This document shows, piece by piece, positions 32,579 to 35,389 of a DNA stretch of 35,389 bases (position 1 is the stretch's first letter; the number at the start of each line of letters is the position of its first letter). A program made the position numbers and the translations under genes. The DNA lies in contig CAZSNN010000005.1 in NCBI GenBank assembly GCA_964608425.1, forward strand, positions 1-35,389, written 5' to 3'. Source of the DNA: an uncultured Gammaproteobacteria bacterium (GTDB lineage Bacteria > Patescibacteriota > Patescibacteriia > Patescibacteriales > UBA12465). The notes under the pieces are model-generated. The model saw only the letters and a list, made by a program, of their open reading frames with translations. It was not told where the DNA came from and ran no database searches.

Positions 32579-33340
32579 TTAAATTAAATTAATTATTTCC
32601 TTAGCTAATCCTTCATAAGCTTTGGCAGCCACTGACTTAGGATCGTATTGTAAAATAGTAGAGCCATAACTAGGGGCTTCGGCTAGACGAACCGAACGAG
32701 GTATAATTGACTTAAAAACCTTATTGGGAAAATATTTATACAACTCATCTTTAACTAAAGAAGATAAGCGATTTCTCTTATCAAACATAGTAATTACTAC
32801 CCCCAAAATACCTAGGTCTGGCTTTAAATTATTTTGAATTAAAGAAATTGTTTCCAGCAATTGACCCAAGCCCTCTAGAGCATAATACTCGCTCTGAATC
32901 GGAATTAAAACCTCATCTGAAGCGGTTAAACTATTGATGGTTAGCAAACCTAAAGAAGGCGGACCATCAATAATTATAAAATCAAATTTATCTCTAATTT
33001 CTTGTAAAATATTTTGTAAACGATATTCCCTATTTTCTACTCCAACTAATTCAATAGAAGCACCTGATAAAGCAATAGTAGCTGGCACAACATAATAATT
33101 TTCTTGTTTGGTTTTAAAAACAACATCCTTAATTGAACAATTTCCAATCAAAGCATCATAAATCCCATGTTCTAATTTACGATGATCAATACCCAGTCCT
33201 GAAGTAGCATTGGCCTGAGGATCAAGATCCATCAATAAAACCTTCTTCTTAAAATAAGCTAAATAAGCACCCAAATTGACTGATGTAGTAGTTTTTCCAA
33301 CCCCACCCTTTTGATTAACTACGGAAATTATTTTTCCCAT
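32579..33340 (-). CDS. parA: Chromosome partitioning ATPase ParA/Soj
   Basis: NQKGGVGKTT deviant Walker A, DLDPQANATSGLG, DGPPSLG, EYYALEG, VRLAEAPS. Confidence 0.96.
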   Translation of the reverse strand: MGKIISVVNQKGGVGKTTTSVNLGAYLAYFKKKVLLMDLDPQANATSGLGIDHRKLEHGIYDALIGNCSIKDVVFKTKQENYYVVPATIALSGASIELVGVENREYRLQNILQEIRDKFDFIIIDGPPSLGLLTINSLTASDEVLIPIQSEYYALEGLGQLLETISLIQNNLKPDLGILGVVITMFDKRNRLSSLVKDELYKYFPNKVFKSIIPRSVRLAEAPSYGSTILQYDPKSVAAKAYEGLAKEIINLI

Positions 33341-33373
33341 ATTAATAAATTATTTAAAAATATTATCAAATTA

Positions 33374-33402
33374 ATTATAACTTATAATTTTATTTTGAGC
33401 AA
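33374..33402 (-). promoter_or_regulatory. parAB promoter
   Basis: Minus strand TTGCTC, 17 nt, TATAAT (33379-33374). Confidence 0.5.
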
Positions 33403-33404
33403 AT

Positions 33405-33431
33405 AAAAAAGGAGCTATTTAATAAGCTCCT
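33405..33431 (-). terminator. Rho-independent terminator
   Basis: Minus strand AGGAGCT-TATTAAAT-AGCTCCT followed by TTTTT. Confidence 0.8.
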
Positions 33432-33439
33432 CTAACAAA

Positions 33440-34438
33440 CTAATTCAAAAGAAATTCTTCTGCCTTTTTTTTGAATACTTCAATCAACTCCTCAGGAAGA
33501 TTTCTCTTTTCAATATCTTCTGATATTATTTTCAAAAAGAAATCATAATCTGCGCTACCTCTTCCTATTTTTAAAGTCAAATCAGAAATCCTTTGATAAA
33601 ACAATTTTCTAACAGCAATATCAATCCTATCAACCAGATTCATATTTTTGAATAAGGGTGACAAACTCTTCATGCTCTCAATTTCAACATCAATAGCTTT
33701 AAGTAATATTTTCTGCCCCTCACTTCTATTGGAAAATGATTTCCAATATTTATAAAGCTCCTCAAAAGAAAAAACGGAAAATAAAAAATTATTTTTAAAA
33801 ATTTCCACCAATCTTTCTTCTATTAACCTTTTAGGCTTACACTCATAATAGAATTTTTCCAAAAATGAACATAAAAAAGAAACCGAACTAGTTCGTGGGA
33901 GAATTTTTGGCAAATTATCAGCCAAAATTTTATCAACCAAGCTAACTATTGGTTTATTATATTCATTTTTACAACGAAATTCAATCAATTCCCCTGCACT
34001 TTTAACCTCTAAAATAGATTTAATTTTTTCAAATAATAAATCTTGTCCTTTTTTAAAATTAGACCATTTTTGGTAAAAAACGATTAAAATTGCCCAATCC
34101 TTTTCTTCAGCTTTCTGAAGAATTGATTGTATTTTTTGAAGAACCAAATTTTCATTTTCTGAGTCAGGGGTTATTGCCCTAATAATTTCACTTATCTCAG
34201 GAAGAAAAAATTCTAATTTAGTCGGCAAATCTGCTAAAAAAGCTGGCAAAAGTTCTAATATTTTTTTATCGATTTTTTCCCTAAATTGAGTAAAAGGGGC
34301 TGATGACTCCCAAACATTCATTAAATCAAATAAATTTTTTATATCTTCGAGATTCTGCTCCTCGTTTTTAAGATTGTTTAAAAAATTTAAAAAGATTTTC
34401 TGATCATCAATTTCTGTAATTAAATTCTTTTTTTTCAT
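33440..34438 (-). CDS. Hypothetical all-helical protein
   Basis: 332-aa Leu/Lys/Glu-rich ORF with its own promoter and terminator; no motif recognized. Confidence 0.7.
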   Translation of the reverse strand: MKKKNLITEIDDQKIFLNFLNNLKNEEQNLEDIKNLFDLMNVWESSAPFTQFREKIDKKILELLPAFLADLPTKLEFFLPEISEIIRAITPDSENENLVLQKIQSILQKAEEKDWAILIVFYQKWSNFKKGQDLLFEKIKSILEVKSAGELIEFRCKNEYNKPIVSLVDKILADNLPKILPRTSSVSFLCSFLEKFYYECKPKRLIEERLVEIFKNNFLFSVFSFEELYKYWKSFSNRSEGQKILLKAIDVEIESMKSLSPLFKNMNLVDRIDIAVRKLFYQRISDLTLKIGRGSADYDFFLKIISEDIEKRNLPEELIEVFKKKAEEFLLN

Positions 34439-34506: not shown

Positions 34507-34665
34507 CGTTGTTAGCCTACATTCTACTCCCAATCTTAATTAAATAAAATTGGAAAATTTTAGAACCTTGTTAGTTTACCCCACCCCTTAACTCACTATA
34601 TATAAATAAAGACTGCACCTTTTTCGATGTATTCTTTTATACTTTTATTTAATTTAAAAACTTAT

Positions 34666-35388
34666 TTATTCATTTTTCAAGCAACGAACCGAATAACCAA
34701 TATCCTGATTATAAGAACTGCGAGTGACTTCATTAAGGCTAGATGCCAAGAGACGGCTCCAAGAAATACCAGGAAGACCCTCAGATGATGACCAAAAACG
34801 AGCGATGCCTCCGAGAAAAACGAAATTACCAAGGCCACTGCGGGCACCGGCTGGCAAAGCTGTAAAACCTGAAGTATTAATACCATCCCAGGAGATTGGA
34901 TTAGTTGGAGAGGCTTTTAAATATGTTCCAGCCGGAGAACATCCAGTATCAGGGTTGCAGGATGGATGAGATATAACAGCTCTAGTTAAAGTAGTCCATT
35001 CAGCATCAGTTGGTACGTGCCAGCCTGTTGGACAAATACTTATTTGGTCAACTGCATACCAATTATATAATACTCCATAGGTGGAATAATTAGGTTCAGC
35101 TTTGGCAGTAGCTACATCACTTCCGTCATAACCATAAACACCATAACCAGGTAACTCACTAGATCCTTGGGTGGCAAATTCAATATTATTATTAACTTCT
35201 GGTAAATAAGCTAGGTTTTCTTGAAACCAACATTGATCACCGATAGCTACGGTATTATAGACATTACTATCTCTCTCATCAGTGATAGGATCACCACAGG
35301 CCCAGGCTGGAGTTGAAGGAGTGTTTGGAGTAAGAGAGATTCCTGATGATGGAGGTGGAATATGTGGCAAATAAATATTTTTTACTCC
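34666..35388 (-). CDS. FISUMP (Fibrobacter succinogenes major paralogous, C-type lectin fold) domain protein, 5' end outside the window
   Basis: CGDPITDERD..Y.TV.IG.QCWFQENL, YGVLYNWYA, ICPTGWHVPTDAEW, SGFTALPAG, FWSSS, GYSVRCLK. The frame is open to the window edge (...GVKNIYLPHIP...), so TTG 35370 is probably not the start. Confidence 0.88.
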   Translation of the reverse strand, partial: GVKNIYLPHIPPPSSGISLTPNTPSTPAWACGDPITDERDSNVYNTVAIGDQCWFQENLAYLPEVNNNIEFATQGSSELPGYGVYGYDGSDVATAKAEPNYSTYGVLYNWYAVDQISICPTGWHVPTDAEWTTLTRAVISHPSCNPDTGCSPAGTYLKASPTNPISWDGINTSGFTALPAGARSGLGNFVFLGGIARFWSSSEGLPGISWSRLLASSLNEVTRSSYNQDIGYSVRCLKNE

Positions 35389-35389
35389 A

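Follow-up and report, generated by a model that had tools for sequence, protein, structure and literature searches.

An adenine-depleted variable region, very probably of DGR origin, in an accessory FISUMP-domain gene of a metagenomic contig

The window, by which we mean the whole stretch of DNA analysed here, is a full metagenomic contig (ENA ERZ4240871 NODE_1466) of 35,389 bp with a GC content of about 30%. Besides the gene treated below it carries housekeeping genes (UvrABC, DnaE, ParAB, glycosyltransferases and one tRNA-Gln), and the tRNA-Gln at 96-167 was the sole RNA gene recovered by Rfam and tRNA scans. At the far end of the window lies a FISUMP-domain gene (Table 1), the stop of which is at 34666-34668 on the minus strand and the 5' end of which is lost at the contig end, 35389; the decoded part comprises 240 residues, and its translation ends in ...GYSVRC LKNE before the stop. 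The domain was matched by Pfam Fib_succ_major (PF09603; E = 4e-35, 122.1 bits against a cut-off of 33.9) and by TIGR02145 (E = 4e-34, 118.7 bits against a cut-off of 41.65). Homologues of the gene, of which the closest is 67% identical, mostly combine an N-terminal prepilin domain, PF07963 (N_methyl), with FISUMP, and in the homologue alignment most full-length relatives begin with a pilin leader and PF07963; among relatives P0001-P0009 the pilin N-terminus is identical. Look-ups of neighbouring genes returned no longer contig that spans the 5' end. Judging from the relatives' sequences, the window gene probably encodes a type IV pilin-FISUMP fusion for cell-surface display, and the protein probably acts as a surface adhesin. 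Directly downstream of the FISUMP gene, a 332-aa ORF (33440-34438, minus strand) matches no Pfam family; it is kept in all conspecific contigs, with or without the FISUMP gene, and therefore is not part of the variable unit.

Table 1. Positions of the FISUMP gene, its variable region and the adjoining flank in the window
Feature	Position	Strand	Basis
FISUMP-domain gene, 3' 724 nt including the stop	34666..35389	-	Pfam PF09603, TIGR02145
Variable region (VR), homologous to cassette template repeats (TRs)	34676..34851	-	Alignments to TRs L011, L013, L014, L020 and L021
Adenine-site substitution span, NNY opposite TR AAY	34700..34845	-	First and last A-site mismatch to TR L020
IMH-like invariant VR 3' end, GGTTATTCGGTTCGTTGCTTGA	34677..34698	-	Same sequence closes TRs L020 and L011
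3' flank travelling with the FISUMP gene	34511..34665	-	Likeness to the L003 flank; without inverted repeat
Synteny junction	34510..34511		Window and conspecific contigs L025, L026, L028, L029 and L031 agree as far as 34510

An AF2 model of the FISUMP domain computed from 120 homologues reached a pLDDT of 93.8, and one computed from 26 sequences was poor (pLDDT 50). A PDB sequence search with the domain found nothing, and the best PDB fold matches of the model, C-type-lectin-like snaclecs, were not significant (E at least 0.34, TM at most 0.38). Matches to the model in BFVD were phage FISUMP proteins (E = 6e-16), together with weak DUF1566 matches. By analogy with the literature on the CLec2/DUF1566 VR class, the window domain may have a C-type lectin fold.

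The end of the gene has an unusual composition. The coding strand of 34681-34851 holds 25 A, 39 C, 44 G and 63 T in 171 nt, that is, 14.6% A at a GC content of 48.5%; the first 111 nt of this interval contain 11 A, and the 120 nt at 34861-34980 contain 31. Its third codon positions are T in 32, C in 14, G in 6 and A in 5 cases, so that 46 of the 57 codons (80.7%) end in Y. All counts given in the earlier note for these two stretches were reproduced exactly. Its caveat that Y-ending codons are also frequent upstream stands, with 26 rather than 27 in the 40 in-frame codons at 34852-34971. For comparison we used 8,990 in-frame 171-nt windows from the 33 other large ORFs of the contig, in which the A fraction is 33.3% on average and never below 18.7%, GC averages 30.8% with a maximum of 45.6%, and the Y-ending share does not exceed 73.7%; none of them matches the interval on low A, high GC or Y-ending share. 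All five Arg codons of the interval are CGY, a choice made for 22% of Arg in the background (AGA is used for both upstream Arg residues of the gene), and none of its six Leu codons is TTA, against 55% in the background. The codon choice of the interval is foreign to the genome.

FISUMP/DUF1566 is a documented class of DGR targets (CLec2, category d; PMC5758913). A FISUMP annotation has been given to 43 DGR target proteins, and the rarer domains that hold VRs include one of GspG-type pilins (PMC11661182). We searched for relatives of the interval with scaffold patterns. The first pattern, in which T was fixed in codon 26 where TRs have A and which finds VR-like copies only, had no match in genome contigs and two in JGI metagenomes, of which one (L010) led by way of an Avd gene to cassettes; in a 1.1-kb JGI contig, the end of a FISUMP gene is followed by a full Avd gene and then by another VR-like repeat. 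The corrected pattern retrieved four genome loci and had no match in IMG/VR. Complete cassettes with the order FISUMP target, bAvd, spacer of about 165 nt, TR and RT are present in L011-L014, L019 and L021, and their RTs show RVT_1, the DGR-typical IGNLTSQ motif and YVDD. The TR sequence opens AGNRKDNGDFNNLGDNANFWSSSESNPGNSWNRNLKSGNSEVNRNNDNQ... and contains 15-17 AAY codons per TR. In the true TR/VR pair of L021, 27 differences fall on TR adenines and none on the 121 other sites, and in that of L011 there are 25 at TR adenines and 2 at non-A sites. The TRs themselves differ from each other at 5-16 non-adenine sites, and TR differences occur even between contigs with 100% identical Avd. The L011 target (L011:25-2457) measures 810 aa and contains two FISUMP domains together with two VRs. 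The adjacent TR is cognate to the C-terminal VR (2 non-A mismatches) and not to the internal one (17).

The window interval proved to be homologous to these TRs codon for codon, starting with GCC GGT at 34851, which is the sharp 5' edge of the TRs, and the sequences diverge beyond GGTTATTCGGTTCGTTGCTTGA, after TTGA; by its position, this shared 3' end resembles an initiation-of-mutagenic-homing (IMH) site. When the VR is compared with TR L014, mismatches occupy 32 of the 51 A sites and 14 of the 120 remaining ones (Fisher p = 3e-11); with TR L020, over the same 171 nt, they occupy 33 of the 52 A sites and 14 of the 119 remaining ones. Across the TRs compared, the VR has mismatches at 31-33 of the 50-52 A sites, with 14-20 more at the roughly 120 sites that are not A (p = 1e-8 to 3e-11). 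Both NNY codons opposite AAY and adenine-free scaffold codons are seen in the window VR, and a codon alignment with L003 and L004 shows variation at positions 1-2, a largely conserved Y at position 3 and invariant scaffold codons. Among the 120 homologues, high variability marks 27 of the 52 columns of the VR and 17 of the 159 outside it; residues that NNY can encode make up 95% in the highly variable VR columns, against 86% in variable columns elsewhere. We therefore consider it very probable that 34676-34851 is a DGR variable region and was made by a DGR. The earlier note had read the interval as a DGR-type VR from its composition, and the homology begins at the very 5' coordinate that it had given, with the differences concentrated at TR adenines. 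The CLec2 target class has already been described, and the window VR is another member of it.

The non-A mismatches of the window VR exceed those of true pairs, 15 against TR L020 over the full 176-nt homology (beside 33 A-site mismatches) compared with 0-2, and they are distributed along the whole length. Thirteen of the 15 are changes from G/C to A/T, a skew stronger than in other non-cognate pairs and as expected from drift in a genome of 30% GC. Because the TRs mutually differ at 5-16 non-A sites, the window VR appears to have been templated by a member of the cassette family but by no TR that we found. Ordinary repeat searches and an adenine-tolerant sliding comparison detected no second copy of the VR in the window, an IUPAC pattern that also accepted A in place of each non-A base matched in the window only the VR itself, and no Avd or RT was found on the contig, in agreement with the earlier note, which had seen neither a template repeat nor an RT here. 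A cognate TR was absent from the window, from 185,579 species-representative genomes, from JGI metagenomes and from IMG/VR, though a strain-specific one could lie in the part that is missing from the window's own, incomplete genome.

A DGR probably occurs in the same species. The ParB of the window is found unchanged on contig 13 of the MAG GCA_964567645.1, a contig that aligns with 12.8 kb of the window at 96.65% identity; at the end of contig 23 of this MAG (L020) a TR is followed by an RT with IGNLTSQ and YVDD, and its contig 12 (L022) carries a FISUMP VR without a nearby cassette. In addition, a conspecific contig (L026) and a cassette (L014) occur together in the sample ERZ27247376. The species thus appears to carry a DGR elsewhere, the link of the TR/RT contig to it depending on the binning of a MAG from a different strain. 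GCA_964567645.1, the source of L020, L022 and L028, is titled 'uncultured Gammaproteobacteria bacterium', and its FISUMP genes and DGR cassette have close relatives that are named Patescibacteria by their sources; to judge from these names, the title is probably wrong. A placement of the window in the CPR would likewise follow from the names under which its closest homologues are recorded.

Downstream of the stop, 34549-34665 lies within an alignment that is 84% identical to the flank of the FISUMP-pilin gene of L003, which belongs to another genome. Beyond 34510 all five conspecific contigs share one other sequence, which in the three longer ones, L025 (97.8 kb), L026 and L029, continues into an HD-domain gene and MnmA; none of the five has the FISUMP gene or its 3' flank at this locus. 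This absence, together with the L003-like flank, indicates that gene and flank form an accessory, recombining unit. The common sequence resumes at AACGTTGACAAAAATAATC, in which a TTGACA box precedes the 332-aa gene. Within the flank, GTTAAGGGGTGGGGTAAAC (34574-34592, minus strand) is kept 3' of the FISUMP genes in L003 and L004 and has no match in Rfam. In L004, L021 and L022 the VR is followed by a perfect 12-bp inverted repeat, and in L011 by a strong nested hairpin; they sit about 17-22 nt past the stop, and these four flanks fold with z = -3.7 to -5.5. An Avd gene adjoins the VR in L004, L011 and L021 (the one in L004, directly 3' of the target gene, is truncated; PF22296, E = 1.7e-5), whereas that of L022 is remote. 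No inverted repeat is present in the window flank, the DNA fold of which (MFE -3.1 kcal/mol, z = +0.87) is no better than that of shuffles. The share of DGRs with a GC-rich inverted repeat assigned at high confidence has been put at only 34% (PMC5758913).

The gene end is found in one other assembly, a Logan assembly of SRR27197515 (L030), and there the earlier note's expectation of variation at the VR was not borne out: the two sequences have no differences in 503 nt of the gene end, including the whole VR, and 142 in the next 1.5 kb, mostly in a recombined patch. Such lack of variation is among the outcomes that the earlier note had named as counting against its reading. Because L030 is near-clonal with the window outside this patch, the identity of the VRs demonstrates stasis over a short time only. 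The patch, at 33000-33750 of the window, spans the 5' end of ParA and the 3' end of the 332-aa gene, accounts for 128 of 148 differences between the window and L030, and looks like a recombination import. We also considered whether the assembly breaks near the gene might reflect hypervariability and rejected this, as both assemblies that reach the VR cross it without a break. One break is that of a Logan contig, 22 nt beyond the stop, and the other is the end of the window within the gene; both adjoin sequence that resembles related FISUMP genes (the 3' flank is L003-like, and P0001-P0009 have the pilin N-terminus in common).

How the pattern might have arisen can be outlined from the known DGR mechanism. 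A TR transcript would be copied by the DGR reverse transcriptase with misincorporation opposite template adenines, and the cDNA would replace the VR (mutagenic retrohoming), so that AAY codons of the template would become NNY, and scaffold codons kept adenine-free in the template (CGY for Arg, CTY or TTG for Leu, TGG, TCN) would be copied faithfully. The template would have come from the Avd-TR-RT cassette family that the species carries elsewhere, and the accessory copy in the window, without an adjacent cassette, an inverted repeat or a cognate TR, would since have drifted toward the A+T-rich composition of the genome. From the composition, the TR homology with its adenine-specific differences, the cassettes, the missing hairpin and the identical VR of the second sample, all of them observed directly, we infer both this retrohoming history and present inactivity.

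An origin without any DGR would have to come from the amino-acid composition of FISUMP C-termini, from transfer out of a GC-richer donor or from recombination between paralogous cassettes. The whole gene is indeed richer in GC than the contig (40% against about 30%), it is accessory, and the alleles of L003 and L004 differ over the whole FISUMP domain. However, composition alone leaves unexplained why mismatches fall on the adenines of an independent TR (p = 3e-11), why the homology starts exactly at the TR boundary and why Arg and Leu switch to A-free codons inside the VR only, and recombination moves a VR but does not create its pattern; we regard such an origin as highly improbable. What remains to be weighed is whether the VR is still in use. 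We think it probable that the window holds an orphan or relic VR of DGR origin that is no longer, or only rarely, rewritten; recent homing would have reset the 15 non-A mismatches.

The earlier note had proposed instead that the VR is now hypervariable and is diversified in trans by a DGR elsewhere, which would require that a TR variant of the strain's own, or a second DGR, rewrites it as a remote target. Several observations would fit: a cassette-less VR does exist in L022, in the MAG that carries TR L020; remote targets are documented for other DGRs (PMC5758913); the TRs of close relatives vary at 5-16 non-A sites; and the ORF is intact with a 22-nt 3' end identical to that of the conspecific TR, so that recognition could still work. 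However, a cognate TR was not found in any of the collections searched, the non-A mismatches to the conspecific TR are nearly all from G/C to A/T, the inverted repeat that marks the VRs of L004, L011 and L021, each next to an Avd gene, and the remote VR of L022 is missing, and the VR is identical in the second sample. On balance, rewriting in trans by either route seems unlikely, as does diversification of the VR in this strain today. We also think it unlikely that the VR is a live remote target of a DGR at least tens of kb away that rewrites the tip domain of a type IV pilin without an inverted repeat. If this were true, it would imply target recognition independent of a hairpin together with strain-specific TRs, in a host that is probably an episymbiotic bacterium with a small genome.

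The closest comparison for the orphan VR that we favour is with the Avd-TR-RT FISUMP cassettes themselves (L011-L014, L021), which share with the window the VR scaffold AG.R...G.F..LG..A.FWSSS...PG.SW.R.L.S....V.R....Q..G.SVRCL, the TR boundary, the invariant 3' end and the protein domain; in contrast to them, the window has no adjacent Avd, TR or RT and no inverted repeat, and shows 14-20 non-adenine mismatches per TR. LdtA of Legionella pneumophila (CLec2, category d: DUF1566/DUF823/Fib_succ_major; Wu et al. 2018, PMC5758913) is likewise a surface protein, with a C-terminal VR in a domain of DUF1566/FISUMP type and with AAY mutagenesis. LdtA, however, is a lipoprotein that adjoins its cassette and needs its inverted repeat for efficient homing (PMC5758913), whereas the relatives of the window protein are pilin fusions, its VR is cassette-less and the repeat is absent. 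In the DGR of Treponema denticola, with its remote TvpA-type targets, one TR can serve VRs far from the RT, which provides a model for the in-trans idea of the earlier note, and these VRs differ from the TR at adenines only (as cited in PMC5758913); the window VR does not share this property. The Mtd/Brt/Avd system of Bordetella phage BPP-1 has the same mechanism and parts (VR, TR, IMH, Avd and RT) but, unlike the window, a phage tail-fibre target of the CLec1 class and an adjacent cassette.

The window offers an example of a DGR VR that can be recognised from composition alone with TR and RT off the contig, for adenine depletion, an A-free scaffold and NNY codons sufficed. Such a composition-based call is silent on present activity, and orphan VRs would inflate counts of remote targets unless non-adenine mismatches, the downstream repeat and variation across samples are checked. 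With this gene, a probable FISUMP adhesin associated with a pilin also joins the accessory surface repertoire that DGRs have shaped in a lineage from biogas and wastewater.

The genomes of L003 and L004 are 97% identical over 11 kb and both have a pilin-FISUMP gene after AlaRS, the N-terminal pilin part of which (about 150 aa) is identical (L003:10445-11068 against L004:10445-11047; also L004:11156-11338), whereas the FISUMP domain differs throughout, beyond the VR. L004 has the truncated Avd gene and the 12-bp hairpin and L003 has neither, and this locus looks like a decayed DGR cassette with domain swapping among paralogues. In L015, L016 and L017 the position of the TR (L015:1010-1130, L016:994-1114, L017:837-996) is occupied by an adenine-depleted, VR-like copy (AGFRDGLGVFLGLGGTASFWSSSECLPGGSW...) that is preceded by the same spacer and by an Avd with 100% identity. 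Of the 50 adenines of TR L014, 32 are changed in this copy, along with five other sites; the independence of the three samples is uncertain. A k-mer misjoin is unlikely because the change starts at the first variable codon, and mutagenised cDNA made from the TR may have replaced the TR itself, in which case the element would be disabled.
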